Source: Raillietiella orientalis (Eukaryota). From it: a stretch of 64,000 nt of DNA. Shown piece by piece: positions 7,801 through 47,440 of the stretch. The notes beneath the pieces were generated by a model that saw only the letters and a list, made by a program, of their open reading frames with translations, did no database searches and was not told where the DNA came from. The stretch covers positions 1-64,000 of the forward strand of contig JAYWIR010000032.1 of assembly GCA_036172245.1 (NCBI GenBank). Direction: 5' to 3'. Within the stretch, counting starts at the first letter, position 1, and each line of letters begins with the position of its first letter. The position numbers and the translations under genes are program-made.

Positions 7801-8249
7801 TGGACTAGAGAAGCCTCTTTGCAGTGCAGCTCCCATTGTCCTAGCGGGTTAACCGGCATGACGGTCAGGAAGCCTTCCTGTCGGACCCCGACGCGCAAGA
7901 GCTCATCCCATAGATTTTCTCCGACACCGTCGGAGATCGCATCACTCACCGGATAGCAGAGCGCAGGCTTGTAGCCATAGGCTGCATATGCCTGCAGCTC
8001 CGCTTCGTCGAGAGGTGCTCCGTTGGCTGCCTCCTCTTTGACGACGGCGGCGAAGCTTCTCGTCGGTGGCGAGACACAAGAATCAGAGGCGTATTGAAAA
8101 TCTGGAGTAGAGTCTCCACTGCCAGTAGCAGCCGACACATCCATGTTTTGCTGCAGGGGCTCTGTGGACATCCCAGTGGACGCACTCGGGCGCAGCACAC
8201 ACAACAAGATGGAAAGGAATCACGCTCGAGGAGCAACACAGAACACGTC
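4900..8249 (-). mobile_element. Element Q: 5' part of a Tx1-like element (5' UTR, broken ORF1, APE and start of RT), cut off at about 4900 by element A
   Basis: 5' terminus GACGTGTTC at 8249; ORF1 7239-8207 with decayed knuckles (CGIWGAEGHRLWTC, CEQLGHSIKEC); TGATG at 6229-6233; KAPGEDGLPAEFF at 4715-5005. Confidence 0.9.
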
Positions 8250-8988
8250 CGTGCAGGCGTTGTCGTGAAGCGTATTCCCAACCGCTGCAAAAAAGAACTC
8301 GTTGCTACCGACAACAACTTCTCTGTTGACTCTGTCAACAGAGAGGGGAGCGACCCGGCGGCGGCGTCCGTCATCGACACCACCATCGATGACGTTGCCT
8401 TCGCGCGAGCCGCTGAAGAGCTGGCTGCCTCGTTGCAGTCAGAACCCTTCAAGGCTGGCAAGAAGGCCGTAAGGCGTCCGGCCTTCCCTGAGGAGTTCCC
8501 CACTTCCGACCCCGAGAAGAAGGCCAGAAGCGCAGCCTCCGTTTTTACGGCACCGTGCAAGAAGGCTGGACGTAAGTCCACAAAGCAAAGGAAGCTCGTG
8601 TTCCCCGTCGAAGGGGAAGTGATGGCTTCCGCAAGCGAGGGTGCCATGAGCGTGGGAAACTCTCGGGAACCGTCGACCGAGAGACTCCCACGGACGGACA
8701 CGGAAGGGATGGAGACGGAGGCCGAACAGTTGCCTCAGTTCCTGAGAAGGCCGAAACCCTCATAGACATCGCGCTTGCCTAGCAAGATGCTGGCTTCCCC
8801 ACAGCTCAAATCTTCCCAGCAGTAATGCCGGAAATCTCCTCCCGCCGTCGAATGCGCATCGCCGTTTGGAACGTGAACGGCATGACAGACGCCGTCAGCA
8901 GACGAGACATGGCTGCCCTACTGGAGTCCAACGACCTTGCGCTGCTGAAGGAGATTCACAAGATGTCTGCAGAACAAGCGCAAAAGAC
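8250..8988 (+). mobile_element. Element R: internal fragment (ORF1 C-terminus and first ~55 codons of APE), bounded by insertions Q and S
   Basis: ORF1 motif DDVAFARAAEELAASLQ; TAATG at 8823-8827; MPEISSRRRMRIAVWNVNG...LLKEIH. Homologous to T (30078-30846). Confidence 0.88.
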
Positions 8989-11900
8989 TTCTCACCCGGT
9001 AACGCAAAGGCGTTTACTCCATATAACATAAAGAAAAAACAATTATATAAAACAAACCAGTTGGGAACCAAGCTTTCAATAGCCGGCTGAACAAGAATGA
9101 AAAGAATATTGCTGGCACGCAGGCCAGAGTAACAGTTTTGCGAACGGTGTGGGGGGGCGGGGAACACAAAGAAACCAAAATAAAATAGAAACAATGAATA
9201 ACGAAGACCGGATAAGGGTCTTTGGGATCGCTCTGGGAGACACGGGGATAGAAGCATGGGCACCGGAAATTTTACCAGGCGAACGGGGACGGGATATTGG
9301 TGGGCGAGAGGTCGAAGGGTTTACCGGATTACGCCATTCTCAAAGGTCTGTAAACCGAAGATGTATGCCAGTGATGTCCTCTCCCACATTGTCACAAAGA
9401 TGAGACCACCTTGAAGCCTTTCTTATGAATTGAGCTGCAAGCAGGTGAGCCTCTTTTCGCTGCGCTGACAACTCCAGGGCGTAGCGGGCCTTCACGATAG
9501 CGCGAACGCAACGTATAGTTGCGACAATCCCGCCAAGCGAAAGTCCATTTCTGCTTAAGAAGCGCCGCAGCACATGAATGGCAGTGCCCCCTTGTGGCAT
9601 GATGCCCGAAGTGAGCCTTCGCAACAGTTCCCGGAGGTCACCGCAGTTTAGCAAAAGGTGCGGAAAAGACTCGATCTCCACGCACCTTAAACAGTTTGGC
9701 GAAGCAGCTCCCCCGGAAACGATGCTTCGCTGCCTATTACAGTGTAATGCACAATGATAAAAGAGCAGCACATCTTGTTTCCAATTTAGGGGTTAACACG
9801 GAGCTGTCCAAACAAACGAAGGGAACTACTATCTCATCGGGGAGCACACTTAAATGTTTGCTTCACCGACGGAGGCCCTTCGCCCGATTCCGAGGAGTGG
9901 CGGCTTGCACCAGCTCCTTTGTCGTCCAGCTGACGAGGAGCTTACTGACTGCTTCTATTTTGTAGGAGAACTCCCATTCCGCCAATAGGCAACCGTCGTT
10001 GCTTGTTGTGAGGGCAGATAGCGCTGCGGCGAGTGGTTTGTCGGGCAGACTATCCGACATCTTCCTGTCCTGCATGACTTCGTCCATTTGATGACTGAGG
10101 AGAAGTCGCAGGCGTCGAAGATCTTCCTGGCGCGTTCCTTCGGAAGCTGCCCATGATGAAAAAGATTCCTGCCGCCATGCATTAATGTTCATGGGGCGGT
10201 AGGAGATCAAACATTGGGCTTTCAGCAGTGAGGACAGCTGCCTCAGCGGGAAGCCAAACCCTATACTGGTGTGCCGAAAGTGGGGTAGCAACGAAAGCAG
10301 TATCTCGCTTCCCGTGCAGCGCCTCAGTATAGGGCGTGCGGGTAAGCACCACGGCGTACACCACAGCTAGGCACAGAGCCGCAGCATGCGAAACTGCACC
10401 TGCAGTTCGATGCTGTTTAAGTCGAGGATGCCCAAGCCTGAATCCTGACGAGGCGCCACCAAGTATTTAAGTCTAACACGGGATCTTGCAGAGCCCCACA
10501 ACGCTTTGCGTAGAAGGCGCTGCGCCCAGACTTTGACTTCCTGGCGAATGGATAAACAAAAAACAGAGGGCAGCGGCGGGGGGGAACGAAGGTGTTTCAG
10601 ATGCAGGCCCAATCCGGCAAGACCAACTCGCCTCATCAGAACGCGCCAAGTGAACGCTCTGCCTTCCAAAGGCAGTCCGACCACGCTTCTGAGATGCAGA
10701 ATTCGGCCAACGGCACCCCAAGGACATGAAGTACCTGCCCTTGGGGATCTTCAGACCGATCCAGTCGGACTGCCCCTCCCACGTTGCACTTACTGCAACA
10801 ACCATACACTTACTCCTCTGAACGCTCACGCAATCACCGCGACGTATCAACCTAAAGAAGTCTTCAAACGATGTCGCCGATGTGGACATGGGAAACAGGA
10901 GTAGCAGGTCGTCGGCATAGGCTTCCACAGCCGGCGTACCTGAAGAGAAGCTCGGCAGGTTGAATAGCGTCAGCCTGTAAGCCTTAAGCACAAATTCAAA
11001 TCAGATGCTCAAGAGCAGCGGGCTTAAGCTATCACCCTCCCTAATTTCTCGTCGTGCCGGCACTTCGTATAGGCGACAGCCACTGAAAACAATTAATGTA
11101 ATTGCGTGACGCCAGCAGGAGCGCAAGTACGCCAACAGGGATGCCGGAAAACCCAGACGTTCCAAAAGCTCAAGAAGAAGCTTTTGGTTCACGCAATCGA
11201 AAGCTTTGTTCAAATCGACGGCAACCGCCAAGGCTCCCAGAGTCTCCCTTTGCGTCCTGCGCCTCCGTCGGTGAGAGATTGAAGGCGTCGCTTCCGCACG
11301 ACGATCCACCGCCACACGATGCTGAAATTGCAGTTATGTGCGGATGAACAAGAGATTTGCGTCCATGGACCGCCCAGGAACAGCGTACGTCTGCTCCGGA
11401 CTTAGCAAGGATTCCGCGATCCTACCCATCCGCGCCACCCAAAGTTTCGAGAACAACTTGACGTCCGAATTCACTAATGTGATCGGACGCCAGTTATTCA
11501 GTTGGCGCAAATCTCCGCCTTTCGGCAGTAGACGCACCTTCGCTGAGCGAAACGAGGCGGGGACATCACCCGAGTCTCGCATCAGCGACGAGAGTTGGAG
11601 CACCAGGGGGATGAGCTCCGCCGCAAAACACTGGAAGAATTCCGCGGGGAGCCCATCTTCGCCTGGCGCTTTTCGTCTCTTGAGCCCCGAGATGGCCGAC
11701 GAAATTTCCTCTGCCGTGAAGGGCTTATCAAGACGTGCGCGTTCCTCCTCGTCTACAACAGGTGCATCAATCGGCAGAAGCAGCCGGGAGAGGCTGCGTT
11801 TCATCGGTGCCTCTGCATACAGAAAAGAGTAATAGCGCCTGATTATCCGTCGCTCGTCGGCTAGAGCCGAGCATTCGCGGTCCTGGTCGTCGAGCAGAAC

Positions 11901-12107
11901 TGTCGCCCCTGAATGCCAGACCTGGCGCTCAGCCTTGGCCTTGTACTCGGATAATCGACCAAAGTCCGCGCGCCTGGAAAAGGTGCCGGCCTGCAGAAAA
12001 TCTCTGCTGTTGGCTACAACCACTCCAAAGCAGCGCGGAAGCTGATGCAAGGGAAAGTGGCAGCAGAACTCGCGGACCGATCTTTTCAGATCGTCGCAGT
12101 CCTCGAG
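8989..12107 (-). mobile_element. Element S: E-subfamily copy retaining the 3' two-thirds of ORF2 (pseudogenised) and a complete 3' end
   Basis: ORFs 11334-12116, 11001-11315, 10473-10991 (YADD), 9863-10291 and 9340-9771 match the E1/E2 ORF2 closely; the 3' UTR matches 19810-20160; terminus CCGGGTGAGAA. Confidence 0.92.
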
Positions 12108-13938
12108 AGAAAGCAAACGGGTTTTTGTTTCGTTCTTGAGCGTTTGTGGTTTTATTTTTTTTTCTTTTTTTTTTGGTGTGCCAGTGAATTCGGTGGTGGC
12201 TAGGCAGCAATGCCTGGGACCATCACCAATGTTAAGAAGGGGGCAACGTCTATGTCTCCTCCTGAATCAATGGATGTGGGGGCAACCGCCCCCAGAGAAG
12301 CGACTCCCTCGCTAGGGAGAAGCTGGAGTTCCTTGGCTGCGGCGCCAACGCAAGCGGTTGCGCCTGAGTTGAAAGCCTACCTGGAGGAGGGGTACAATCC
12401 CCCTCTACTCTACAAGGTAGGTAACCTTTACTTATTAAAGAGTGCACGCGCTTTCTCGAAAGTGATGCACTCCCTCAAAGTACCACAGAAGGAGCTCTAG
12501 GCGATGACCATCAGTAGTGGTGAAAAGTACGTTGAGGTGATTTGCAAAGAAGCAAGTCTTGCCCAGCGTCTTTCTCCGTACACCTGTTCCTTTAGGGAAT
12601 CGCCGGCTGCTGCTCATCACGGAGGATAGATCTATCGTTATCCACTTCCTTGGAATCACCTTCCCGATGGCCGAAGAGGCTGTCCGAAAGAAACTAGTTA
12701 AATTTGGAACTGTCCACGCGTTGTGGAAAAGGACGACTCCGTTTTGGGAGTACGATCTCCTAAATTGCGGTATGGCTTCCGCGCTTCACGGTCCGCGAAA
12801 GTTGCTCCCTACCTAACAAGCTGGAGGTCAACGGCGAACCCGTTGACATCTGGCGGGCATTGCAGCACTTCAGTTCACCTGAAAAAAAGGTGCCCTCACT
12901 TGCAGTGCAAGCAATGCAAGCCACCCGGGCACTCTCTTTCAGTGTGCCCGCAAAATGAAGTCCGCGTCGCGTCCGCACGGAATGCGAAGAAGCGCGCGGC
13001 GAGAAAAAGACGAGTTCAGGTAGCCCCAGAGAGAGCCGCCGCTCGAAAAACAACTATCGTGCCCCAGGTGAAGCTCAGCTCCGAGATCATGGAAAACTCG
13101 GACAAGGTCGAGGAGAACGGCCAGGAACCTGGATGGCAGGTAGTAAATTCCAAGAGGCAGGAAAGCCTCAAGGAAGGGAAAAAAAATGTCGCGAAACGCA
13201 GCCAGAATTTGCCGCGTCGCGAAAATATCAAACGCTGCTCTGTCGTCATCAAGCGCATCCCTGCGGTCGAACAGAGCGGCAAAAGTGCACTTTTCGGTGT
13301 CCACTTTCAGCCCTCCGGCAAATTAATCCCGGAGGCTATCGACCCGGCGGTAACGTCCGTCGTCGAACTCATGCTCGACGACGTCGCCTTTGAGCGAGCG
13401 CCGGAGGAGCTCGCTGCGTCCTTGCAGCGTCCCCTGAAATCCGCGAAAAAGCCTCAAAGCGTCCGACGTCGATCAAGAAGTCGGAGATTACGAACTCTGA
13501 CGCAGAGGCGGAAAACACAGCCTCCGGCATCGCGGCCTCCCGCCCGAAGGCCAATCGCACGAAGAAGGCTACCCGCAAAATTATCCCGTCCGTGGAAAAG
13601 GGAGAGATAATTGAGGGAAACGAGCGTGCCAATAAAGTGGGGAACTACGGGGACTCTCTTCGAAAGGTAACCTCAAGCTGCGACTTCGGACGGATGGAAA
13701 GGGTAGAGTCTGTGCCCCAGGTGCTTCAATTGCCTGAGATGGCCGCGGTCCGCTTACTCGTCCCTCCCACCTGTCCGTTGACAGGTGCTGGAACGCCACG
13801 TTCCCAGCCTTGATGCGGGAATCGCCTCTTGCCGCCGTCTGCTAATTGCCTTTTGGAACGTCAAGGGGCTATGCGACGACGGCAAGAGACGAGACGTGGC
13901 CTCCACCCTGACATCCTTCGACCTGGTACTGCTGCAAG
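12108..13938 (+). mobile_element. Element H, 5' segment: 5' UTR, broken ORF1 (12210-13813) and ORF2 start up to FDLVLLQ; interrupted by the E1-E2 dimer
   Basis: MDVGA...YNPPLLYKVG...GTVHALW, knuckle CKQCKPPGHSLSVC, TGATG at 13811-13815, then MRGIASCRRLLIAFWNVKG...FDLVLLQ. Confidence 0.88.
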
Positions 13939-14203
13939 CCCAACCGACGACTGAACAAGAATGAAGAGAATATTGCTGGCACGCAGGCCAGAGTAACAGT
14001 TTTGCGAACGGTGTGAGGGGGCGGGAAACACAAAGAAACCAAAATAAAATAAAAACAATGAATAAGGAGGACGGGATAAGGGTCTTTGGGATCGCTCTGG
14101 AAGACACGGGGATAAAAGCATGGGCACCGGAAATTTTACCGAGCGAACGGGGACGGGGTATGGGTGGGCGAGAGGTCGCAGGGGTCACCGGATTACGCCG
14201 TTC

Positions 14204-17200
14204 TCAAAGGTGTGTAAACCGGCGATGTATGCCGGTGATGTCCTCATTCACCTTGTCACGAAGATGAGACCACCTTGAAGCCTTCTCCATGAATTGAGCT
14301 GCAAGCAGGTGAGCCTCCCTTCGCTGCGATGACAACTCCAGGGCGTAGCGGGCCTTCACGATGGCGCGAACGCAACACATGGTTGCGACAATCGCGCCAA
14401 CCGAAAGTCTATTTCTGCTGAAGAAGCGCCGCAGCACATCAATGGCAGTGCCTCCTTGTGGCATGATGGCCGAAGTGAGCCTTCGCCACAGTTCCCGGAG
14501 GTCACCGCAGTCCAACAAAAGGTGCGGAAAAGACTCGATCTCTCCGCACCTTAAACAGTTTGGCAAAGCAGCTCCCCCGGAAACGATGCTTCGCTGCCTA
14601 TTACAGTGAAATGCACAATGTAAAAAGAGGAGCACATCTTGTTTCCACTTAAGGGGGAACACGGAGCTGTCCAAACAAACGGGGGGAACCACTATCTCTC
14701 CGGGGGGCACACTTAAATGTTCGCTCCACAGAAGCAGTCCCTTCGCCCGATTCCGAGGTGTGGCGGCTTGCACCAGCTCCTTTGTCGTCCAGCTGCCGAG
14801 GAGCTTACTGACTCCCGCTATTTTGCAGGAGAACTCCCATTCCGCCGGTAGGCAACCGTCGTTGCTTGCCCTGAGGGCAGACAGCGCTACGGCGAGTGGT
14901 GTGGCGGCCAGACGATCCGACCACTTCTTGTCCTGCATGACTTCGTCCATTTGATGACTGAGGAGAAGTCGCAGGCGTCGAAGATCTTCCGGGCGCGTTC
15001 CTTCGGAAGCTGCCCACGATGAAAAAGATTCCTGCCGCCATGCATTAATGTTCATGGGGCGGCAGGAGATCCAGCTGTGGGCTTCCAGCAGTGAGGACAG
15101 CTGCCTCAGCGGGAAGCCAAACCCTATTCTGGTGTGCCGAAAGTGGGGTAGCAACGAAAGCAGTCCCTCGCTTCCCGTGCAGCGCCTCAGTATAAGGCGT
15201 GCGGGTAAGCACCACGGCGTACACCACAGCTTGGCACAGAGCCGCAGCATGCGAAACTGCACCTGCAGTTCGATGCTGTTTAAGTCGAGGATGCCCAAGC
15301 CTGCATCCTGACGCGGCGCCACCAAGTCTTTAAGTCTAACACGGGATCTTGCAGCGCCCCACAACGCTTTGCGTAGAAGGCGCTGCGCCCAGACTTTGAC
15401 TTCCTGGGGGGGTGGACAAACAAAAAACAGGGGGCGGAGGAGGGGGGCAACGAAGGTGTTCCAGATGCAGGCCCGTTCCGGCAAGACGAACTCGCCTCCT
15501 GAAAACGGGCTAAGTGCACGCTCTGCCTTCCGAAGGCAGTCCGACCACGCTTCTGAGACGCAGAAGTCGCCCAACGGCACGCCAAGGTACCTGAGGTACC
15601 TGCCCGTGGGGATCTGCAGGTCGATCCAGTCGGACTGCCCCTCCCACGTCGCACCAACCGGAACAACCATACACTTACTCCTGTTAACGCTCACGCCCGC
15701 ACCACGACGGATAAACTCGAAGAAATCTTCAAGCGACGCTGTCGGGGTGGACATGGGCAACAGGAGAAGCAGGTCGTCGGCATAGGCTGCTACGGCGGGC
15801 GTACCTGGACAGGAGCTCGGCAGGTTGGCTAGCGTCAGCCTGTAAGCCTCCAGCACCAATTCAAAATAGATGCTGAAGAGCAGCGGGCTTAAGCTGTCAC
15901 CCTGCCTAATTCCTCGTCGTACCGGCACGCCGTACACGCGACAGCCACTGAAAACAATGGATGTAATCGCGTGGCGCCAGCAGGAGCGCAAGTACGCCAA
16001 CAGGGATGCCGGAAGACCCAGACGTTCCAAAAGCTCAAGAAGAAGCTTTTGGTTCACGCAATCGAAAGCTTTGTGCAGATCGACTGCAACCGCCAAGGCC
16101 CCAGGTGTCTCCCTTTGCGTCCCGCGCCTCCGTCGGTGAGAGATCGAAGGCGTCGCTTCCGCACGACGATCCACCGCCACACGATGCTGCAATTGCAGCC
16201 ATGTGCGGATGAACAAGAGATTCGCGTCCATGGACCGCCCAGGAACAGCGTACGTCTGCTCCGGACTTACCAAGGATTCCGCGATCCTACCCATCCGCGC
16301 CACACAAAGTTTCGAGAACAACTTGACGTCCGAATTCACTAATGTGATCGGACGCCAGTTGTTCAGTTGGCGCAAATCTCCGCCTTTCGGCAGTAGACGC
16401 ACCTTCGCTGAGCGAAACGAGGCGGGGACATCGCGCGAGTCTCGCATCAGCGACGAGAGCTGGAGCACCCGAGGGATGAGCTCCGCCGCAAAACACTGAA
16501 AGAATTCCGCGGGGAGCCCATCTTCGCCTGGCGCTTTTCGTCTCTTGAGCCCCGAGATGGCCGAGGAAATTTCCTCTGCCGTGAAGGGCTCATCAAGACG
16601 CGCGCGTTCCTCCTCGTCTACAACAGGTGCATCAATCGGCAGAAGCAGCCGGGAGAGGCTGCGTTCCGTCGGTGCCTCTGCATAAAGAGAAGAGTAATAG
16701 CGCCTGACTATCCGTCGCACGTCGGCTGGAGCCGAGTATTCCCGGTCCTGGTCGTCGAGCAGAACTGTCGCCCCTGACTGCCAGACCTGGCGCTCGGCCT
16801 TGGCCTTGTACTCGGATAATCGACCAACGTCCGCGCGCCTGGAGTAGGAGCGGGCCTGCAGAAAATCTCTGCTGTTGGCTACGCCCTCTCCGACGCCGCG
16901 CGGAAGCTGGTGCAAGGGAAACCGGCAGCAGAACTCGCGGACCGATCTTTTCAGATCGTCCCAGTCCTCGAGCTCACTTATGGCAAAGCCGAGGAGGTAC
17001 TGGCGAAGATGCTCAGCCGCCTCCGGGTGGCTTAGCCAGTCTGCCGGCATCCTCCAAAAACAGTTTGGAGGCCCCTTGCCTGGCGGGAGCAACTCGCACT
17101 CGAGCCTGTTGTGGTCTGAAAGCACGGACGGCACGGGACCTCTCCGACCCACTCGACAGAGCAAGTGTTCATCAAGGTATACGTGGTCCGGCGTTGCTGC

Positions 17201-17779
17201 CATAACAGGGTCGCTAGCGAACAAGTTGCACGCGTGCACGGACGCGCACATCTCTTCCGCTAGCAACTTTTCCCTTTTGTGGGATCTATTCTCGGAAAGC
17301 AGGTGGACGTTAAAGTCCCCCGCAATGAGATGGGCCACAGTAGGGTGAGATCGAGTGAGCCACTGGCCTTGAAGGGTACCGAAGAACTCAATCCTTTCGG
17401 CCCATCGTCCAGCACCGCTAGGCGCGTACACGTTGGTTACGACAAGGTCGATCGAGTCGGACCACTTGAGTACAAGCTGTCCCACTCGGCCTTCCGTGTC
17501 GAAACGAACGCTGCGCACCGCTCCCGCCAAAGTTCCTCGCACGAGGAAAGCGACGCCGCACGTACGTGCAACGCCGCACCTATAAAGTAGCGTTCCGCCC
17601 GCGCGCCGTTCGATTTCGGCAGCCTGCTCTCCGGAGATGCTGTGAATCTCCTGCAGGAGCGTCAAGTCGAAGGCGCGCAGAGCGTCAGCCACTAGTCGCC
17701 TCTTCTCCTCGTGTTGGAGCCCGTTGACGTTCCAAGACGTTACGGCAACACGACGAGAAGACGCGATTGCCCTCCTCAC
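14204..17779 (-). CDS. E1 ORF2: APE endonuclease, reverse transcriptase and C-terminal Cys/His finger (1191 aa, uninterrupted; GTG start)
   Basis: WNVNG, LLQE, NVYAP, AGDFN, SDH; KAPGEDG, NWRPITL, DLHKAFD, QGDSLSP, YADD, YLG; CLRC...E...H...C. Confidence 0.95.
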   Translation of the reverse strand: MRRAIASSRRVAVTSWNVNGLQHEEKRRLVADALRAFDLTLLQEIHSISGEQAAEIERRAGGTLLYRCGVARTCGVAFLVRGTLAGAVRSVRFDTEGRVGQLVLKWSDSIDLVVTNVYAPSGAGRWAERIEFFGTLQGQWLTRSHPTVAHLIAGDFNVHLLSENRSHKREKLLAEEMCASVHACNLFASDPVMAATPDHVYLDEHLLCRVGRRGPVPSVLSDHNRLECELLPPGKGPPNCFWRMPADWLSHPEAAEHLRQYLLGFAISELEDWDDLKRSVREFCCRFPLHQLPRGVGEGVANSRDFLQARSYSRRADVGRLSEYKAKAERQVWQSGATVLLDDQDREYSAPADVRRIVRRYYSSLYAEAPTERSLSRLLLPIDAPVVDEEERARLDEPFTAEEISSAISGLKRRKAPGEDGLPAEFFQCFAAELIPRVLQLSSLMRDSRDVPASFRSAKVRLLPKGGDLRQLNNWRPITLVNSDVKLFSKLCVARMGRIAESLVSPEQTYAVPGRSMDANLLFIRTWLQLQHRVAVDRRAEATPSISHRRRRGTQRETPGALAVAVDLHKAFDCVNQKLLLELLERLGLPASLLAYLRSCWRHAITSIVFSGCRVYGVPVRRGIRQGDSLSPLLFSIYFELVLEAYRLTLANLPSSCPGTPAVAAYADDLLLLLPMSTPTASLEDFFEFIRRGAGVSVNRSKCMVVPVGATWEGQSDWIDLQIPTGRYLRYLGVPLGDFCVSEAWSDCLRKAERALSPFSGGEFVLPERACIWNTFVAPLLRPLFFVCPPPQEVKVWAQRLLRKALWGAARSRVRLKDLVAPRQDAGLGILDLNSIELQVQFRMLRLCAKLWCTPWCLPARLILRRCTGSEGLLSLLPHFRHTRIGFGFPLRQLSSLLEAHSWISCRPMNINAWRQESFSSWAASEGTRPEDLRRLRLLLSHQMDEVMQDKKWSDRLAATPLAVALSALRASNDGCLPAEWEFSCKIAGVSKLLGSWTTKELVQAATPRNRAKGLLLWSEHLSVPPGEIVVPPVCLDSSVFPLKWKQDVLLFLHCAFHCNRQRSIVSGGAALPNCLRCGEIESFPHLLLDCGDLRELWRRLTSAIMPQGGTAIDVLRRFFSRNRLSVGAIVATMCCVRAIVKARYALELSSQRREAHLLAAQFMEKASRWSHLRDKVNEDITGIHRRFTHL

Positions 17780-19680
17780 GGCTGGGAAAGCGAGGCCGTG
17801 GTGCTCGCCTCACCCGGCGAGCGGGCAGTAAGCAGCACGACGGGCTGGAGGGCGCGGTCGCCACCGGCCTCAACTGTGCTGCACGTAATCGGGTGCTCCT
17901 CCCCGGGTGCAGAACCTGTGGGTTCCGGGGTGAGCACTCGCCGTTCCGCGGCGAGTGTGTCACGCCTCAGGGCTTCAGCCCCGCGGGCGCTCGCTCCCGC
18001 GCGAGTTACGCGTCGTTCAGCTGCGTTATCGGACTCCTTTGCGAAGTCTGATGCTCGCACGATCGACGTGCGCTTGCATCCGTCCGATTGCACCGGAATG
18101 GTCTTCTCGGCGGTCACAGAAGCGGACTTGCACGCGTTGAAGGCGTTGGCTTTTTCCTTGGACGAGTCACAAGCCGCGCGTGTTTTCGTATTCGCGCGAC
18201 TGCTTTTTCCTTTGGAAGAGCTCAGGGATGGAGGTTGCGGAGCTTTCTTTGGAGATTTTTCTTTCCTCCTCTCCACAACCTTCCATTCGCCTTCGCTATT
18301 TTCGGAAGCTTCCGCGACAGTAGTTGCGGAAACCTCCGGGATTTTCGCTGCGTTCTCTGGGGGCGTTGCTTTCGCTACGCCTTTAAAAGGCGGCAACGGA
18401 GTCACCTTCTTGACAGTCGGGAGATTGCTCCTCTCCTGCCGAGTCGGCGATGGGGCGACTGCATGCAGCGTGCTTTTGCTCGTTGCGACGCTGCTTTTTA
18501 CGGCTTTCGTAGCCTTTGCAGTGGGGCCTGCGCTGCAGTGGGGCTGTCCGGAACTCGGAAGGGACAACGGAACGGGGCAAGAAGTCTTCGCACTGTTGCG
18601 ATCTTCCTGTTTTCCTACCTTTCCCTCCAGGGTGTTACAGAGATTTCCTGGTTCCAGGTTCGGAAAGGTGCCTGCGAGTTCGGCAGAGAGGGAAGGCACG
18701 GCACGTGTCAAACCCTCGCGCCCCTTTTTAATTGGCTTCCCCGCCGTGACTTTCCCCTTTCGGGGCGTTGCGGGCGGGGATGCTTTCTTTTTATCCGCGG
18801 ATCGCTCGTGGTTTTTTTCGAGTTTTTGCGGACGACGTTTTTTATTTGCCGCTGCGGCTTTTCGTGCAGTGGTCTCTTGAACCCGACGAATTTCCGCTGC
18901 GGCTCTTTTTCTTGCAAGTACCGGGCACTTCTTGATTTTGTGCCCGGAATCTTTGCAATAGCGGCATCTTGGAGAGGGGCACTCTTTAATTCGGTGCCCA
19001 TCCTTGCCGCACTGCTCGCACGCGCGAGTCTGGCCTATGAACCACAGGTGAACGACCGTGCCGTTCACCTGCAGCTGCTCAGGCACAACACGCCTGTTCG
19101 CGACGGTGATCCGCGCGGAGGCTTGTCCAATGTGGACAGAGGGGAAATCCTTTAGAGGATTTGGCCTCCTCCACAGAGCGTGCACGGTGGCGAACTTCGC
19201 CAGCACACTTACGACATCGCGGTCGGAGATTTCCGGTTCGATGTCGCACAATTGAACGACAAAAGAGTCGTCCATCGCGGTAGGTAGGACTTCCTTGCCA
19301 TTGATGGTCAACGGCGTACGGAGAAGGCGCTGCACAAGTGCTGCGTTCTTGCACCGAATCTTCGTATATTCCATCCTGCCAGCAGGCATTATGGCAAGGA
19401 GTTCCTCCTCGCGAACGCCGATCCGGACGAGCTCCTCATTGAGCTCACGACGGATTTACTTGTTAAGGGGCCAACTGACCTTATGACGGAGTGCTGGCAT
19501 GTATCCTGATGACACATACGCCTGGAACTCCGCATCGCAGGGTCCTGGTCTTTGGGAGGTAACTGCGGCGTAACTCCTCACCGGGGGCGAGGAAACCATT
19601 ACGGAGGATGCGGCCGCTTCAAGTGCAGCTGAAGTGCATCCAGTGGCTTGCTACTCCACACAATCCTGTGTACTGGCCAT
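17776..19680 (-). pseudogene. E1 ORF1 (gag-like nucleic-acid-binding protein with two CCHC knuckles), one in-frame TAA at 19456-19458
   Basis: ATG at 19680 is homologous to the E2 ATG at 25646; knuckles CEQCGKDGHRIKEC and CRYCKDSGHKIKKC; open from 19455 to 17776. Confidence 0.85.
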
Positions 19681-19786
19681 GTTGCACTATGCTACTTGGC
19701 AGATTGCACAGGAACTTACAATTGCGAGCAAAGACGCAGGCACAAAGTTGCCCGATCGTTGGCGCGGATAGATGCGGAAACACATC

Positions 19787-19809
19787 TGCACTGTACGAGC
19801 GCAAGAGAT
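19787..19809 (+). repeat. Target-site duplication, left copy (TGCACTGTACGAGCGCAAGAGAT), lying between E1 and E2
   Basis: Direct repeat of 25753-25775 (21/23 identical). It is derived from the APE coding sequence of element H. Confidence 0.88.
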
Positions 19810-20163
19810 TTCTCACCCGGTCACGCCGGGGCGTTTATTCCATATAACATAAGCAAAAAACAGCAATTATACAAAATAAACCAGTTGGAAACCAAACTCT
19901 CAACCGACGACTGAACAAGAATGAAGAAAATATTGCTGGCACGCAGGCCAGAGTAACAGTTTCGTGAACGGTGTGGGGGGGCGGGGACCACAAAGAAACC
20001 AAAATAAAATAAAAACAATGAATAAGGAGGACGGGATAAGGGTCTTTGGGATCGCTCTGGAAGACACGGGGATAAAAGCATGGGCACCGGAAATTTTACC
20101 GAGCGAACGGGGACGGGGTATGGGTGGGGAAGAGGTCGCAGGGGTCACCGGATTACGCCGTTC

Positions 20164-23100
20164 TCAAAGGTCTGTATAAATGCGATGTATGCCGGTGATG
20201 TCCTCATTCCCCTTGTCACGAAGATGAGACCACCTTGATGCCTTCTCCATGAATTGAGCTGCAAGCAGGTGAGCAACCCTTCGCTGCGCTGACAACTCCA
20301 GGGCGTATCGGGCCTTCACGGTGGCGCGAACGGAACACATGGTTGCGACGATCGCGCCAACCGAAAGTCCATTTTTGCTGAAGAAGCGCCGCAGCACATC
20401 AATAGCAGTGCCTCCTTGTGGCATGATGGCCGAAGTGAGCCTACGCCACAGTTCCCGGAGGTCACCGCAGTCAAGCAAAAGGTGCGGAAAAGACTCGATC
20501 TCTCCGGCACGGCAAAGCAGACCCAATAAACCAGCTCCCCGGGAAACGATGCTTCGCTGCCTATTACAGTGAAATGCACAATGTAAAAAGAGCAGCACAT
20601 CTTGTTTCCACTTAAGGGGGAACACGGAGCTGTCCAAACAAACTGGGGGAACCACTATCTCTCCGGGGGGCACACTTAAATGTTCGCTCCACCGAAGCAG
20701 TCCCTTCGCCCGATTCCGAGGTGTGGCGGCTTGCACCAGCTCCTTTGTCGTCCAGCTGCCGAGGAGCTGACTGACTCCCGCTATTTTGCAGGAGAACTCC
20801 CATTCCGCCGGTAGGCAACCGTCGTTGCTTGCCCTGAGGGCAGACAGCGCTACGGCGAGTGGTGTGGCGGCCAGACGATCCGACAACTTCTTGTCCTGCA
20901 TGACTTCGTCCATTTGATGACTGAGGAGAAGTCGCAGGCGTCGAAGATCTTCCGTGCGCGTTCCTTCGGAACCTGCCCACGATGAAAAAGATTCCTGCCG
21001 CCATGCATTAATGTTCATGGGGCGGCAGGAGATCCAGCTTTGGGCTTCCAGCAGAGAGGACAGCTGCCTCAGCGGGAAGCCAAACCCTATTCTGGTGTGC
21101 CGAAAGTGGGGTAGCAACGAAAGCAGTCCCTTGCTTCCCGTGCAGCGCCTCAGTATAAGGCGTGCGGGTAAGCACCACGGCGTACACCATAGCTTGGCAC
21201 GGAGCCGCAGCATGCGGAACTGCACCTGCAGTTCGATGCTGTTTAAGTCGAGGATGCCCAAGCCTGCATCCTGACGCGCCGCTACCAAGTCTTTTAGTCT
21301 AACACGGGATCTTGCAGCGCCCCACAACGCTTTGCGTAGAAGGCGCTGCGCCCAGACTTTGACTTCCTGGGGGGGTGGACAAACAAAAAACAGGGGGCGG
21401 AGGAGGGGGGCAACGAAGGTGTTCCAGATGCAGGCCCGTTCCGGCACGACGAACTCGCCTCCTGAAAACGGGCTAAGTGCACGCTCTGCCTTCCGAAGGC
21501 AGTCCGACCACGCTTCTGAGACGCAGAAGTCGCCCAACGGCACGCCAAGGTACCTGAGGTACCTGCCCGTGGGGATCCCCAGGTCGATCCAGTCGGACTG
21601 CCCCTTCCACGTCGCACCAACCGGAACAACCATACACTTACTCCTGTTAACGCTCACGCCCGCACCACGACGGATCAACTCAAAGAAATCTTCAAGCGAC
21701 GCTGTCGGGGTGGACATGGGCAACAGGAGAAGCAGGTCGTCGGCATAGGCTGCCACGGCGGGCGTACCTGGACAGGAGCTCGGCAGGTTGGCTAGCGTCA
21801 GACTGTAAGCCTCCAGCACCAATTCAAAATAGATGCTGAAGAGCAGCGGGCTTAAGCTGTCACCCTGCCTAATTCCTCGTCGTACCGGCACGCCGTACAC
21901 GCGACAGCAACTGAAAACAATGGATGTAATCGCGTGGAGCCAGCAGGAGCGCAAGTACGCCAACAGGGATGCCGGAAGACCCAGACGTTCCAAAAGCTCA
22001 AGAAGAAGCTTTCGGTTCACGCAATCGAAAGCTTTGTGCAAATCGACTGCAACCGCCAAGGCTCCCGGTGTCTCCCTTTGCGTCCCGCGCCTCCGTCGGT
22101 GAGAGATCGAAGGCGTCGCTTCCGCACGACGATCCACCGCCACACGATGCTGCAATTGCAGCCATGTGCGGATGAACAAGAGATTCGCGTCCATGGACCG
22201 CCCAGGAACAGCGTACGTCTGCTCCGGACTTACCAAGGATTCCGCGATCCTACCCATCCGCGCCACCCAAAGTTTCGAGAACAACTTGACGTCCGAATTC
22301 ACTAATGTGATCGGACGCCAGTTGTTCAGTTGGCACAAATCTCCGCCTTTCGGCAGTAGACGCACCTTCGCTGAGCGAAACGAGGCGGGGACATCGCCCG
22401 AGTCTCGCATCAGCGACGAGAGTTGGAGCACCAGGGGGATGAGCTCCGCCGTAAAACACTGAAAGAATTCCGCGGGGAGCCCATCTTCGCCTGGCGCTTG
22501 TCGTCTCTTGAGCCCCGAGATGGCCGAGGAAATTTCCTTTGCCGTGAAGGGCTCATCAAGACGCGCGCGTTCCTCTTCGTCTACAACAGGTGCATCAATC
22601 GACAGAAGCAGCTCGGAGAGGCTGCGTTCCGTCGGTGCCTCTGCATACAGAGAAGAGTAATATCTCCTGACTATCCGTCGCACGTCGGCTGGAGCCGAGC
22701 ATTCCCGGTCCTGGTCGTCGAGCAGAACTGTCGCCCCTGACTGCCAGACCTGGCGCTCGCCCTTGGCCTTGTACTCGGATAATCGACCAACGTCCGCGCG
22801 CCTTGAAAATAAGCGGGCCTGCAGAAAATCTCTGGTGTTGGCTACGCCCTCTCCGAAGCCGCGCGGAAGCTGGTGCAAGGGAAACCGGCAGCAGAACTCG
22901 CGGACCGATCTTTTCAGATCGTCCCAGTCCTCGAGCTCACTTATGGCAAAGCCGAGGAGGTACTGGCGAAGATGCTCAGCCGCCTCCGGGTGGCTTAGCC
23001 AGTCTGCCTGCATCCTCCAAAAACAGTTTGGAGGCCCCTTGCCTGGCGGGAGCAACTCGAACTCGAGCCTGTTGTGGTCTGAAAGCACGGACGGCACGGG

Positions 23101-23742
23101 ACCTCTCCGACCCACTCGACAGAGCAAGTGTTCATCAAGGTATACGTGGTCCGGCGTTGCTGCCATAACAGGGTCGCTAGCGAACAAGTTGCACGCGTGC
23201 GCAGACGCGCACATCTCTTCCGCTAGCAACTTTTCCCTTTTGTGGGATCTATTCTCGGAAAGCAGGTGGACGTTAAAGTCCCCCGCAATAAGATGCGGTA
23301 CAGTAGGGTGAGAACGAGTGAGCCACTGGCTCTGAACGGTACCGAAGAACTTAATCCTTGTGGCCCATCGTCCAGCACCGCTCGGCGCGTACACGTTGGT
23401 TACGACAAGGTCGATCGAGTCGGACCATTTGAGTACAAGCTGTCCCACTCGGCCTTCCGCGTCGAAACGAACGCTGCGCACCGCTCCCGCCAAAGTTCCT
23501 CTCACGAGGAAAGCGACGCCGCACGTACGTGCAACGCCGCACCTATAAAGTAGCGTTCCGCCCGCGCGCCGTTCGATTTCGGCAGCCTGCTCTCCGGAGA
23601 TGCTGTGAATCTCCTGCAGGAGCGTCAAGTCGAAGGCGCGCAGAGCGTCAGCAACTAGTCGCCTCTTCTCCTCGTGTTGGAGCCCGTTGACGTTCCAAGA
23701 CGTTACGGCAACACGACGAGAAGACGCGATTGCCCTCATCAC
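20164..23742 (-). CDS. E2 ORF2: APE endonuclease and reverse transcriptase (1192 aa, uninterrupted; probable ATG at 23739)
   Basis: All APE and RT motifs as in E1. The CxxC of the C-terminal finger is altered (LLCRAGE). Confidence 0.95.
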   Translation of the reverse strand: MMRAIASSRRVAVTSWNVNGLQHEEKRRLVADALRAFDLTLLQEIHSISGEQAAEIERRAGGTLLYRCGVARTCGVAFLVRGTLAGAVRSVRFDAEGRVGQLVLKWSDSIDLVVTNVYAPSGAGRWATRIKFFGTVQSQWLTRSHPTVPHLIAGDFNVHLLSENRSHKREKLLAEEMCASAHACNLFASDPVMAATPDHVYLDEHLLCRVGRRGPVPSVLSDHNRLEFELLPPGKGPPNCFWRMQADWLSHPEAAEHLRQYLLGFAISELEDWDDLKRSVREFCCRFPLHQLPRGFGEGVANTRDFLQARLFSRRADVGRLSEYKAKGERQVWQSGATVLLDDQDRECSAPADVRRIVRRYYSSLYAEAPTERSLSELLLSIDAPVVDEEERARLDEPFTAKEISSAISGLKRRQAPGEDGLPAEFFQCFTAELIPLVLQLSSLMRDSGDVPASFRSAKVRLLPKGGDLCQLNNWRPITLVNSDVKLFSKLWVARMGRIAESLVSPEQTYAVPGRSMDANLLFIRTWLQLQHRVAVDRRAEATPSISHRRRRGTQRETPGALAVAVDLHKAFDCVNRKLLLELLERLGLPASLLAYLRSCWLHAITSIVFSCCRVYGVPVRRGIRQGDSLSPLLFSIYFELVLEAYSLTLANLPSSCPGTPAVAAYADDLLLLLPMSTPTASLEDFFELIRRGAGVSVNRSKCMVVPVGATWKGQSDWIDLGIPTGRYLRYLGVPLGDFCVSEAWSDCLRKAERALSPFSGGEFVVPERACIWNTFVAPLLRPLFFVCPPPQEVKVWAQRLLRKALWGAARSRVRLKDLVAARQDAGLGILDLNSIELQVQFRMLRLRAKLWCTPWCLPARLILRRCTGSKGLLSLLPHFRHTRIGFGFPLRQLSSLLEAQSWISCRPMNINAWRQESFSSWAGSEGTRTEDLRRLRLLLSHQMDEVMQDKKLSDRLAATPLAVALSALRASNDGCLPAEWEFSCKIAGVSQLLGSWTTKELVQAATPRNRAKGLLRWSEHLSVPPGEIVVPPVCLDSSVFPLKWKQDVLLFLHCAFHCNRQRSIVSRGAGLLGLLCRAGEIESFPHLLLDCGDLRELWRRLTSAIMPQGGTAIDVLRRFFSKNGLSVGAIVATMCSVRATVKARYALELSAQRRVAHLLAAQFMEKASRWSHLRDKGNEDITGIHRIYTDL

Positions 23743-25646
23743 GGCTGGGAAAGCGAGGCCGTGGTGCTCGCCTCAGCCGGCGAGCGGGCAGTAAGCAGCA
23801 CGACGGGCTGGAGGGCGCGGTCGCCACCGGCCTCAACTGTGCTGCACGTAATCGGGTGCTCCTCTCCGGGTGCAGAACCTGTGGGTTCCGGGGTGAGCAC
23901 TCGCCGTTCCGCGGCGAGTGTGTCACGCCTCAGGGCTTTAGCCCTGCGGGCGCTCGCTCCCGGGCGAGTTACGCGTCGTTCAGCTGCGATATCGGACTCG
24001 CCCACCGCAAAGTCTGATGCTCGCACGATCGACGTGCAGCTTGCTCCGTCCGATTGCACCGGAATGGTCTTCTCGGCGGTCACAGAAGCGGACTTGCACG
24101 CGTTTAGGGCGCTGGCTTTTTCCTTGGAAGAGTCACAAGCCGCGCGTGTTTTCGTATTCCCGCGACTGCTTTTTCCTTTGGAAGAGCTCAGGGACGGAGG
24201 CTGCGGAGCTTTTTTTGGAGATTTTTCTTTCCTCCTCTTCACAACCTTGCATTCGCCTTCGCGATTTTTCGGTGATGCGAAAAATTACAGATTGCGGATT
24301 AACATCTTCCACCTTTGCGTTCTCTGGGGGCGTTGCTTTCGCTACGCCTTTAAAAGGCGGCAACGGAGTCACCTTCTTGACAGTCGGGAGATTGCTCCTC
24401 TCCTGCCGAGTCGGCGATGGGGCGACTGCATGCAGCGTGCTTTTGCTCGTCGCGACGCTGCTTTTTACGGCTTTCGTAGCCTTTGCAGAGGGGCCTGCGC
24501 TGCAGTGGGGCTGTTCGGAACTCGGAAGGGACAACGGAACGGGGCAAGAAGTCTTCGCACTGTTGCGATCTTCCTGTTTTCCTACCTTTCCCTCCAGGGT
24601 GTTACGGAGATTTGCTGGTTCCAGGTTCGGAAAGGTGCCTGCGAGTTCGGCAGAGAGGGAAGGCACGGCACGCGTCAAACCCTCGCGCCCCTTTTTAATT
24701 GGCTTCCCCGCCGTGACTTTCCCCTTTCGGGGCGTTGCGGGCGGGGATGCTTTCTTTTTATCCGCGGATCGCTCGTGGTTTTTTTCGAGTTTTTGCGGAC
24801 GACGTTTTTTATTTGCCGCTGCGGCTTTTCGTGCAGTGGTCTCTTGAACCCGACGAATTTCCGCTGCGGCTCTTTTTCTTGCAAGTACCGGGCACTTCTT
24901 GATTTCGTGCCCGGAATCTTTGCAATAGCGGCATCTTGGAGAGGGGCACTCTTGAATTCATGCCCCTCCTTGCCGTACTGCTCGCACGCGCGAGTCTGGC
25001 CTAAGAAACACAGGTGTATGAGCGTGCCTTTCACCTGCAGCTGCTCAGGCACAACACGCCTGTTCGCGACGGTGATCCGCGCGCAGGTTTGTCCGATGTG
25101 GACAGAAGAGAAATCCTTGAAAGAGTTCGGCCTCCTCCACAAAGCGTGCACGGTGGCGAAATTCGAGAGCACGCTGACAACATCGCGGTCGGAAATTTTC
25201 GGTTCGATTTCGCACAATTGAACGACAAAAGAGTCGTCCATCGCGGTAGGTAGGACTTCCTTGCCATTGATGGTCAACGGCGTACGGAGAAGGCGCTGCA
25301 CAAGTGCTGCGTTCTTGCACCGAATCTTCGTATATTCCCTCCTGCCAGCAGGCATTATGGCAAGGAGTTCCTCCTCGCGAACGCCTATCCGGACGAGCTC
25401 ATCATTGAGCTCACGACCGATTCTCCCGTTAAGTGGCCCACTGACCTTATAACGGAGTGCAGGCATGTATCCTGATGACACATATGCCTGGAACTCCGCA
25501 TCGCAGGGTCCTGGTCTTTGGGAGGTAACGACGGCGTAACTCCTCACCGGGGGCGAGGAAACCATTACGGAGGATGCGGCCACTTCAAGTGCAGCTGAAG
25601 TGCATCCAGTGGCTTGCTCCTCCACACTATCCTGTGTACTGGCCAT
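23739..25646 (-). pseudogene. E2 ORF1, frameshifted near 24960 and disturbed near 24260-24315
   Basis: Pieces 24675-25646, 24133-24678 and 23739-24242 are collinear with E1 ORF1. Confidence 0.85.
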
Positions 25647-25752
25647 GTTGCACTATGCTACTTGGCAGATTGCACAGGAACACACAAGTGCGAGCAAAAA
25701 CGCAGGCACAAAGTTGCCCGATCGTTGGCGCGGAAAGACGCGGAAACACGTC

Positions 25753-27301
25753 TGCACTGTACGAGCGCGGGAGATCGAGCGTATCTGGGGTGGAAGGCTG
25801 CTGTGGCGTTGCGGCACCGTTAAATCTTGCGGTGTCGCGTTCCAGCTTCGTCCAGCTGTCGAGGCTGCGGCAAAAAGCGTAGGGTTCGATAGTGCCAGTC
25901 GCGACGGGCAGTTGACCATCAGGTGGTCCGACTCCACCGATCTGGTCATTACCAACGTGTACGCTTTAAGAGGCAGCGACGCGCTAAGAGCAAAGTTAAG
26001 GAGAAATTTCTTTCTTACCCTGAGGCGCGAATATCTAGACGAAGCGGGAGTGCGCAAAGCGAACCTAATCGCAGGAGACTTTCACCTGCGCCTGCTGTCA
26101 GATTCGTGCGACACACTTCGGGACCGCGTGAACGAGCTGTGCGCAAAGATGCACACGCGCAACTTGTTCGCAAGAGCTACGAAAATGGCCGAAAGCATAG
26201 ATCACGTGTTTCTGGACCAGCACCTATGCTCAGGCGTGGGCAGGCGCGGCAAGATACCGTCGAAACTGTAGGACCATGACCGGATCGTACTCCAGGTGCG
26301 CACACGCGATAGGGGTCCGCGTCATCTTCGTGGCGCTTACCGGGCGACTGACTGAAACTTCCGGAAGCCCCGGAGCATCTCCGCGGTTTCATACGAGGTT
26401 TTAGCTTAAGTCGCTTCAGGACTGGGACCGTTTCAAGCGCTCGGTCCGGAAATTTTTGCGACGTGTTCCCTATGAACCTCCTGCCTGCCGGGTTTTGTGG
26501 GAACGTGCGTAACGAGAGATAGTAATTACAATCTCCATGTTACGCGCGAACACCAGACGTACACAGGCTAACCGAATACTGGGCGGGAGCCGAGAGGCAG
26601 GCGTTGCAATCCGGGTCGGCCAGCTTACTGGACGACCAGAGTTCGGAGCACTCGGCCCCCGCCCAGGTGAAAGGCATCTTAAAAATTTCTACTCCTCCCT
26701 GTACGCGCGCGCTTCACCGAAACGGGATGTCTTGCGAGTCCTTCTTCCGGAGGGCGCTCCGGGGATCGGGGAGGAAGATAGAAAGACCCTCGACGAGCCT
26801 TTAACGATGGGCGAGATCATCTCGGCCATCGGAAAGCACAAGAGGCGAAAGGCTCCAGGAGAGGATGGCCTGCCAGAAGAATTTTTTCAATGTTTCGCGT
26901 AAGAGCTCACTCCTCTGGTGAACAAACTCACCTAGCTGATCCGCGAAACGGGAGACGTCCCCGCCTCGTTTCGTTCGGCAAAACTGCGTCTCCTCCCTAA
27001 GGCAGGAGACCTTCGTAGCATGAGTAAGAGGCGGCTAATTACCGTGATAAACGCGGACACCAAGTTGCTGGCAAAATTGCCGATTAACGGAAATCTTCAT
27101 TAGCCCGGAGCAGACATATGCTGTTCCCGTGCGGAGCATGGATGCCAACATGTTCCTCGCTAGCACCTCTTCGCGCTTCAACAGGAAAGGGTCAGGAAGG
27201 GCAACCGGACTTCCGGAATGTCCGCTGCTAGGAAACGGGATGGTTGGAAGGGAGGGGGAGGGAGCCCTCGCAGACGCAGTCGATTTGCATAAAGCATTCG
27301 A
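25753..27301 (+). mobile_element. Element H, second segment: remainder of APE, linker and RT up to DLHKAFD (pseudogenised); begins with the right TSD copy 25753-25775 and is interrupted by T
   Basis: AREIERIWGGRLLW...NVYA...AGDFH; KAPGEDGLPEEFF; DLHKAFD. It continues the reading broken at 13938. Confidence 0.87.
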
Positions 27302-41798: not shown

Positions 41799-42048
41799 TT
41801 TTTACCCGGATATGCCGGGGCATTTATTTAAAAAAAATAAAAATACATGTAATTTTCGGGTGAAGAACCTGATGGTTCAGCACAAAGCAGCCTGCTTCTT
41901 GCCGGTTCTAAACCGGCGAGGTCCTTTGAACGCGCGGGAACGGGAAGAAAGAAACAAAACAAACAAAAAAAATGTAAAAGTTGGAGGGAGTACTTATGTT
42001 TGGGAAGGGAGGGCGGGACGGGAATCACATTGCACGCTTAAAGGTCCT

Positions 42049-45605: not shown

Positions 45606-45613
45606 TGGTGTTG

Positions 45614-47359: not shown

Positions 47360-47440
47360 TTCTGCCTGAAAAACACCGCTCAAACACCACACAACCTACA
47401 ATCTCGCGCTAAAACGCAGGAGCAGCAAAAGAAACACGTC

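Follow-up and report, generated by a model that had tools for sequence, protein, structure and literature searches.

Does a retrotransposon insert at one fixed position in the endonuclease gene of its own relatives? The question is raised by 64,000 nucleotides (nt) of DNA from Raillietiella orientalis (contig JAYWIR010000032.1, positions 1 to 64,000; "the window" means this whole 64-kb stretch). Nearly all of the window is a nest of L1-like long interspersed nuclear elements (LINEs) of one family, with several diverged subfamilies. One of these, the E subfamily, is present in three copies (S, E1, and E2), all on the minus strand. The original prediction was that all three lie antisense at the homologous codon of the APE endonuclease gene of two different host subfamilies, and that E is a site-specific element with this gene as its target. 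S and E2 do lie at the same codon; the junction of E1 has been destroyed, and the claim of three such junctions within the window did not stand. A third exact junction came from contigs of a public sequencing run. Overall, we think it probable that E is a sequence-specific LINE aimed at the endonuclease gene of one clade of its relatives, the T/H clade. This reading fits best because there are three exact junctions in three hosts, at least two of which are certainly independent events; an empty site in a paralogue and the divergence of the hosts agree with it.

A recurring junction in the endonuclease gene

The 3' ends of S and E2 meet their hosts at exact junctions of the form …GCGCAA[A/G]AGA[C/T]|TTCTCACCCGG, antisense in the host APE gene at the codons A-Q-E/K-I. 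The S junction is ACAAGCGCAAAAGAC|TTCTCACCCGG (8974-8988/8989) and the E2 junction is ACGAGCGCAAGAGAT|TTCTCACCCGG (19795-19809/19810); both had been predicted with these strings and coordinates, and the sequence bears them out. We aligned the APE N-terminal regions of LINE copies in the window (14 sequences). The host sequence next to S (R-left) and the 33-nt host stretch beside E2 both stop at one column of this alignment, directly behind the codons A-Q-(E/K)-(I/T). The filled hosts share AGCGCAA(G/A)AGA(T/C), and the target motif is GCGCAAGAGAT. The order of the elements, from self-BLAST and from reading the junctions, is as follows.

4901..8988, plus strand: R-left, a composite of a U' fragment and host R (from the tblastn map, the sequence, and an 88% inverted match)
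6234-4901, minus strand: the U' fragment within R-left, amino acids 1-445 of open reading frame (ORF) 2
~8822 to 8988, plus strand: ORF2 of host R, as far as APE amino acid ~53 (…SAEQAQK)
8989..12107, minus strand: S, an E-subfamily copy with its 3' end (…CCGGGTGAGAA) at 8989; 90% like E2
12108..13938, plus strand: H-left, with the H 5' region, an ORF1-like part, and APE amino acids 4-43, ending in …FDLVLLQ (CTGCTGCAAG)
13939..19776, minus strand: E1, an E copy, 96% like E2; the last 89-91 nt of the 3' end are absent
19389-17776, minus strand: E1 ORF1, open, 537 amino acids, with zf-CCHC
17779-14204, minus strand: E1 ORF2, open, 1191 amino acids, with APE and reverse transcriptase (RT); the start ATG is lost (TGAGG)
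19777..19809, plus strand: 33 nt of host H codons, gaaacacatctgcactgtacgagcgcaagagat (…CTVRAQEI), between the E1 5' end and the E2 3' end
19810..25742, minus strand: E2, an E copy of full length whose 3' end is complete, hairpin motif included
23742-20164, minus strand: E2 ORF2, open, 1192 amino acids, with a UGAUG stop/start overlap
25743..25775, plus strand: second copy of the 33-nt host stretch, 30/33 identical to 19777-19809; the three differences are A to G
25776..27302, plus strand: H-right, from APE amino acid 52 (IERIWGGRL…) to RT amino acid ~573 (…AVDLHKAFD)
30101..30120, minus strand: empty target site in T (the paralogue of R), ACAAGCACAAGAGAT^CGAAC

S is truncated at its 5' side at about amino acid 270 of ORF2, and its frames are broken. 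E1 and E2 form a head-to-tail tandem with 33 nt of host codons between them, and this stretch recurs after E2. At least 19785-19809 of the 33 nt (TCTGCACTGTACGAGCGCAAGAGAT, 25 nt) is clearly host-like, and the remaining GAAACACA is plausibly the host codons E-T-H. E1 had been described as carrying the target next to its 5' end, separately from the E2 junction in H; the target is indeed present there, as the same 33 nt (19777-19809) that form the E2 junction and not as a second site. Both E copies were damaged later: E1 is without the overlap ATG and the 3' end, and ORF1 of E2 is broken into pieces.

An empty version of the site had been predicted in T, and it is there. The T site is uninterrupted (ACAAGCACAAGAGATCGAAC, 30120-30101 on the minus strand, reading on as …CAAGAGAT CGAACGG…) and has one mismatch relative to the filled sites. 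R-left and T are colinear: 6000-8988 is 88% like the reverse complement of 33096-30107 over 2995 nt, up to the exact position of the S junction, where the match ends. In the 14-sequence alignment, the copies of the T, V-type, E, A, and U subfamilies are all uninterrupted at the site. T has AGCACAAGAGAT, E and A have GCCGAAAT, U has TCGGATCT, and V-type copies have CCCAGGAAAT or TCCAGGAAAT. As had also been noted, E itself differs from the target at the homologous place (GAGCAGGCTGCCGAAATCGAA / GCTGCCGAAATCGAA; the E-self site is GCTGCCGAAAT^CGA). Because the copies outside the T/H clade differ in the site and are uninterrupted, the apparent target is confined to this clade. The two hosts, R and H, do differ (68-75% alike), as was claimed of the host subfamilies, but both are within this single clade.

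We located LINE 3' ends in the window through a hairpin motif that they share (n = 9). All nine adjoin other LINE sequence (from the 3' motif and the ORF map), and the window is therefore a nest of LINEs within LINEs. Both of the E copies in the window that have an intact 3' end use the same site, versus none of the seven other recognised LINE 3' ends. The seven junctions of other subfamilies are at seven different places.

E2 is the only copy with both flanks. A search of the window found its 3' flank repeated at its 5' end (28 nt with three mismatches), and it was the sole exception: no duplicated flank was found in the window for 7 of the 8 LINE 3' flanks tested. The duplicated stretch is 25-33 nt long (30/33 identical), and as judged from the sequence it fits a target-site duplication of E2. 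To the right of E2, the rebuilt site reads GCGCGGGAGAT^CGA and is empty. The two 33-nt copies differ at 3/33 positions, versus ~3% over ORF2 (P ~0.09, Poisson estimate, not significant). As for the true 5' end of E, a motif common with the start of V37 (CGCCGCGCCAACG) was rejected as a marker because V37 is truncated inside ORF1 there, and an alignment of E with the U 5' region did not reach the terminus.

Public sequencing runs provided another junction. One run, X1, contains 0.42 of the sampled words of 19700-25900; two others (X2 and X3) contain next to none, and no RNA run was listed. We aligned X1 contigs to 19700-26300 at 85% likeness or more. Just 11 of the 144 contigs on this stretch are at least 99% alike, so X1 is not simply the assembled individual. 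The first X1 record (383 nt) covers 19798-20159 and is 97% like E2, from which it differs at 10 letters and by one 3-nt insertion; the junction itself has no gap. E1-type letters occur in it at 19963, 19986, 19988, and 20129-30. Before 19798, its left flank is CGTGATCTCTGCAGAACA, and when this is joined to the aligned AGCGCAAGAGAT it encodes …V-I-S-A-E-Q-A-Q-E-I|. This flank is absent from the window, where its sole match is R itself, with three mismatches. This contig brings the exact junctions of this kind to three; its host, also the third, is R-like but is not R. Overall, the three E copies with a readable and unambiguous 3' junction (S, E2, and X1 record 1) all have the same target and the same orientation. 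An X1 contig over the 5' untranslated region of E ends at 25762 without a loose end.

A second loose end in X1, AGCAGGCGGAGATTGAA before 19808, was considered as a fourth junction at the A-Q-E-I codons (it appears to encode Q-A-E-I-E) and was rejected. It is the antisense of the APE codons F-N-L-R-L-L near amino acid 155 (the GDFN/FNLRLL codons), with the host in sense orientation, and it matches V41/V45 exactly. The window has such a junction too: at 51207/51208, another subfamily, W, is joined by its 3' end (…GGGGTGGTAAAT) to a LINE whose sequence starts at amino acid 155, in sense. The W and E2 termini match at 28/32 positions (manual count), close enough for a W-type contig to be let through at 85%. 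This loose end may belong to W, and we counted it neither for nor against E.

Separate insertions or copied DNA

Might the junctions descend from a single event? H stands alone as a subfamily: other copies are only 64-76% like H-left and H-right, with H-right 68% like T over 678 nt and H-left 75% like the R region over 96 nt. By self-BLAST, the E copies are far closer to each other (S versus E2, 90% over 3152 nt; E1 versus E2, 96%). In a tree built from the 700 nt that follow the site, the copies fall into two main clades: (A, (U, U'), (E1, E2)) and (V55, (T, H-right), (V37, (V41, V45))). T and H-right are sisters with SH-aLRT support of 99 and branch lengths of 0.25 and 0.33, or ~0.58 substitutions per site between them. 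By these comparisons, the hosts R/T and H separated long ago as sister lineages, within the main clade to which E does not belong, and the inserts arose well after that separation. For this reason, one insertion that was copied as DNA, the scenario named in advance as refuting the prediction, does not fit.

E1 and E2 bear on the same question. Their ORF2s differ at 113 sites (49 transitions), with a ratio of nonsynonymous to synonymous substitution (dN/dS) of 0.53. Of 5000 simulations of 113 neutral substitutions, both ORF2 frames stayed open in 1.3% (P = 0.013). Because of the dN/dS value and the two open frames, E1 and E2 are probably separate retrotranspositions and not an in-place duplication.

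Duplication of DNA does occur inside the nest. The window contains an inverted duplication of ~4 kb (4901-8988 versus 33935-30105, 88%) with the same head-to-head LINE junction in both copies (U'/R and U/T); R later received S, and T stayed empty. This pair, together with the tandem, is what could be expected if one or two old E insertions had spread as DNA, by segmental or inverted duplication, unequal crossing-over, or gene conversion, so that the junction was inherited. In particular, unequal crossing-over at the two duplicated flanks of one insertion would be expected to give E1-33 nt-E2-33 nt, and the host flank in the X1 contig is R-like. We nevertheless consider such copying quite unlikely: R/T and H are 68-75% alike and the E inserts 90-96%, the host stretch beside E1/E2 is of the H type and not the R type, and the closest paralogue of R is empty. 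Purifying selection on the E1 and E2 ORF2s, both of them open, also argues against it, and of the two copies in R or R-like hosts, the one in X1 is 97% like E2 but S only ~90%.

Another possibility is that insertion is directed to a region or cluster, as for the Zepp and ZeppL elements, by a local hot spot of DNA structure or by pairing of the RNA tail or a 33-nt leader with LINE DNA, rather than by the specificity of the endonuclease. All nine recognisable LINE 3' ends adjoin LINE sequence, nested clusters aimed at existing copies are known for Zepp and ZeppL from the available text (PMC8226300, PMC3446292), and the other junction type (W, at the GDFN codons) recurs in the window and in X1. 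The 33 nt could be a transcribed leader instead of a true duplication, with copies that differ at 3/33 positions versus ~3% over ORF2. This is unlikely, in our view, because nucleotide-exact junctions in three diverged hosts require a nick at a fixed bond and because the seven junctions of other subfamilies are at seven different places; even then, a hot spot or pairing guided by RNA would amount to insertion at a fixed site. If every insertion hits a LINE, then two of them could coincide by chance. The window is wall-to-wall LINEs, so that landing in one is expected, and many junctions were scanned in the first reading. But the nucleotide, the orientation, and the 11-nt motif are all the same, and the third case is from independent data (X1). 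By an arithmetic estimate, one coincidence has a chance of ~1 in 12,000 (a 6-kb target with two orientations), or ~0.004 with ~45 junction pairs, and we regard chance as very improbable.

Several points weigh against site-specific insertion by E. The region has undergone DNA-level rearrangements, including the ~4-kb inverted duplication, and the sample of exact junctions is small (n = 3). Furthermore, the insertion of S in R and the insertion in the R-like host in X1 could stem from one old insertion, which gives a minimum of two independent events. The 3' junction of E1 is lost: 89-91 nt of E1 and 33-38 nt of H (from LLQ to the site) are absent. E1 adjoins H-left at ...CTGCTGCAAG (13938), which is 33-38 nt upstream of the target site, so its end fits the same interval as the target without displaying the same site. 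Either a deletion of ~125 nt across the canonical junction or priming from a resected end at the second-strand cut would explain this loss. On the 5' side of S there is no R-right and no duplication; since the sequence from 12108 onward is the H 5' region, this side of S has been rearranged. The duplicated stretch has no sharp left border (its length is 25 to 33 nt), and in this part H is out of frame by 2 nt. As for X1, 7 of 93 loose ends were listed, so further E flanks may exist, and no X1 contig among those listed bridges the E1/E2 tandem or the junction of E2 with H-right, so that X1 shows presence only. Finally, if the loose end at 19808 is from an E copy, then E is not strictly specific.

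A possible mechanism and known relatives

The features that a mechanism for site-specific insertion by E would have to explain (the junctions, their orientation, the empty paralogous site, the duplicated flank, and the divergence between hosts and inserts) are directly observed. E, which has a structured 3' end without poly(A), would integrate by target-primed reverse transcription at one defined sequence. The putative target is the sense strand of the APE-coding region of the T/H clade, GC(G/A)CAA(G/A)AGA(T/C)^CGA, which encodes A-Q-E-I^E-R and lies ~50 codons into ORF2. At the junction, the plus strand reads host…GAGAT|TTCTCACCCGG…, and the right part is the complement of the E 3' end. Under the established model of target-primed reverse transcription, the nick would be on the host sense strand, between T and C of GAGAT^CGA. 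In this process the nicked strand supplies the primer. If the host sense strand primes the cDNA, then E is always antisense to its host.

A second cut, on the other strand and by our estimate ~25-33 nt upstream, would lead to the long target-site duplication. The 33 nt do recur at the 5' side of E2, followed by CGAGCG… of H-right. The duplicated stretch and the downstream CGA… would rebuild the site at the 5' side of E, and a second E could land there, giving a head-to-tail tandem (E1, then E2); a rebuilt site would explain the second insertion. The specificity presumably resides in the E endonuclease, or part of it may come from a read-through RNA tail that pairs with the target.

A more far-reaching idea is that the E endonuclease evolved its specificity for the endonuclease gene of a competing LINE clade, that each insertion kills a rival ORF2, that the target is a renewable and host-neutral landing pad, and that the E clade has a site that cannot be cleaved. 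Such an arms race would be comparable to homing endonuclease and immunity systems. We find it doubtful. The E-clade site is GCCGAAAT^CGA, versus CAAGAGAT^CGA in T, but the E motif GCCGAAATCGAA is common to its relative A, so it reflects the divergence of the clades and is not a demonstrated adaptation. E also lands beside its own 5' end, in the E1/E2 tandem.

How does E compare with other LINEs? Human L1 ORF2p has the same APE and RT architecture, and its mode of integration, target-primed reverse transcription, is the one that we propose for E. The sites that human L1 nicks are loosely defined (TTTT/A-like), while the context at the E junctions is a single fixed one of 11 nt. Tx1 makes a target duplication of 23 bp, and the putative duplication at E2 is also long. 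Like E, the Tx1-clade elements are APE-type LINEs that insert again and again at one position of a transposon family with many copies. In the available text of one report, Tx1 inserts into Tx1D (a piggyBac-type element), Tx1-Mar into Mariner-N4_AMi, and Tx1-9_AMi at ~300 bp into three Harbinger families, and the clade is described as an animal group (PMC4494074). The targets given there are DNA transposons, whereas E would target the endonuclease coding sequence of a sister LINE clade, which it enters antisense.

Zepp has a poly(A) tail, and E is without one. Zepp and ZeppL are L1-type elements of green algae that form LINE-only clusters by insertion into existing copies (PMC8226300, PMC3446292, available text). 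The window is likewise a LINE-in-LINE cluster, and it too has a head-to-tail run of 5'-truncated copies (V45-V41-V37, described below). It differs in that several diverged subfamilies coexist, and the available text of these two reports describes no fixed codon-level site or fixed antisense orientation for Zepp (PMC8226300, PMC3446292). Other LINEs that are array-forming or centromeric, as far as the available text goes, include Cnl1 and Celine (10.1101/2021.08.11.455996, PMC11288735). Elements specific to ribosomal DNA, snRNA genes, or telomeres, as covered in the available text, include R1, R2, Keno, Utopia, and SART1/TRAS (PMC4640811, PMC1919474). These share with E a conserved multicopy sequence as a safe and self-renewing target, along with exact junctions. 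Their targets are genes or repeats of the host, whereas the E target is the gene of a selfish element, and the competitor copy is inactivated.

The known targets of site-specific LINEs are ribosomal DNA, snRNA genes, telomeres, microsatellites, and a few DNA transposons. A literature search that covered few subscription papers and no supplements found no LINE reported to insert at one particular codon of another LINE's endonuclease gene. If E does have this target, then the endonuclease coding sequence of a sister LINE is a new class of target, E is a concrete case of direct competition between retrotransposon lineages, and its behaviour suggests how LINE-only nests (possibly centromere-like ones) grow while the genes of the host are spared. 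As a natural enzyme with what looks like a long recognition context, the E endonuclease would also be of interest for understanding, and possibly re-using, the target choice of APE-type retrotransposons.

The LINE family and other features of the window

Pieces that resemble ORF1 or ORF2 are found on both strands from 1.2 kb to 63.6 kb (tblastn with both E1 proteins). A full unit has two ORFs: ORF1 of ~537 amino acids with a CCHC zinc knuckle, and ORF2 of ~1191 amino acids with APE and RT. In ORF2, Pfam identifies Exo_endo_phos at amino acids 15-223 (E = 2.5e-11) and RVT_1 at 464-734 (E = 3.1e-21); in the 537-amino-acid ORF1 of E1, it identifies zf-CCHC at 122-139 (E = 6.8e-5). Among solved structures, the best relative of ORF2 is human L1 ORF2p (8uw3_A, E = 7.7e-45), and the L1 endonuclease structure 1vyb_A was also matched (E = 1.3e-5). 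By the domains of both ORFs, E is classified as an APE-type non-long-terminal-repeat retrotransposon of the L1 superfamily. A protein database search found no close family members: the best match was 31% identical over part of the length and the top-scoring one 28%, and the matches were mostly unnamed.

The 3' ends of all of the subfamilies have a short hairpin and a few A-rich letters (…GGGTGAGAA), without poly(A). The motif they have in common is AATAAA(C/T)GCC(C/T)CGGC(G/A)-loop-CCGGG, with a hairpin of 5-6 bp; the 3' end of E2 with its hairpin reads AATAAACGCCCCGGCGTGACCGGGTGAGAA. The motif is found at these eight sites:

8989-9015, 19810-19836, 27303-27329, and 33936-33961: shared 3' hairpin motif
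38291-38318, 41799-41825, 51179-51207, and 54523-54550: shared 3' hairpin motif

The stem is altered on both sides in W (CCCCG/CGGGG), and its 5' arm is mutated in S (CCTTTG). The hairpin motif, as a shared sequence, is probably a recognition element for the RT; by themselves, the folding energies are not significant for most copies. A search of metagenomes for the shared 3' motif AATAAACGCCCCGGCG gave 118 loci, all unrelated and none with an E-like end; these are terminator-like bacterial sites and an unrelated repeat from one sample.

The W 3' end (…AATAAACGCCCCGGCGTAACGGGGTGGTAAAT), at 51160-51235, adjoins in sense a LINE that starts exactly at the APE codons G-D-F-N (TTCAATCTCGGCCTGCT), and the W-type 3' junction reads …GGTAAAT|TTCAATCTC. 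W at the GDFN codons could be a second type of fixed-site junction in the family, and its recurrence hints that several subfamilies each target a fixed site in their relatives. At 27274-27330, the T 3' end (minus strand, …CCGGGTGAAAA) is antisense in H, directly after the RT codons A-V-D-L-H-K-A-F-D; with one copy only, the basis is too small to judge a site preference.

On the minus strand, V45, V41, and V37 follow one another head to tail (38290-49700), and every downstream copy has its start within ORF1. Two extra tandem pieces with the 5' region and the ORF1 N-terminus (about 47696-48670 and 49023-49700) lie upstream of V45. The run may consist of nested sense insertions; no duplicated flanks were found for it in the window. 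We rejected a fixed site in this array because V41 and V37 are cut at different ORF1 positions. The guanine plus cytosine content of the window is about 0.55-0.61, but at the right end (62001-64000) it is 0.45, versus 0.54-0.62 elsewhere. The nest may have its edge here, but 63186-63639 still contains a fragment of a LINE ORF2.

In E2, the ORF1 stop and the ORF2 start overlap as UGAUG (23736-23745, minus strand); in R and T the overlap is UAAUG, and in E1 (17773-17782, minus strand) the overlap ATG is changed, giving UGAGG. Such overlaps suggest termination-reinitiation. There is also an upstream ATG, followed ~130 nt later by a donor-like motif, GT(C/G)AGT or GTAGGT, which is conserved between the E and U 5' regions and is found in H as well. 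These features are at the following places:

19600-19690 and 25560-25650, minus strand: upstream ATG and donor-like motif
30990-31110, plus strand: upstream ATG and donor-like motif
12400-12430, plus strand: upstream ATG and donor-like motif

In E2, the frame from the upstream ATG is open for 323 amino acids, and this ATG may be a longer ORF1 start or part of an intron-like feature.

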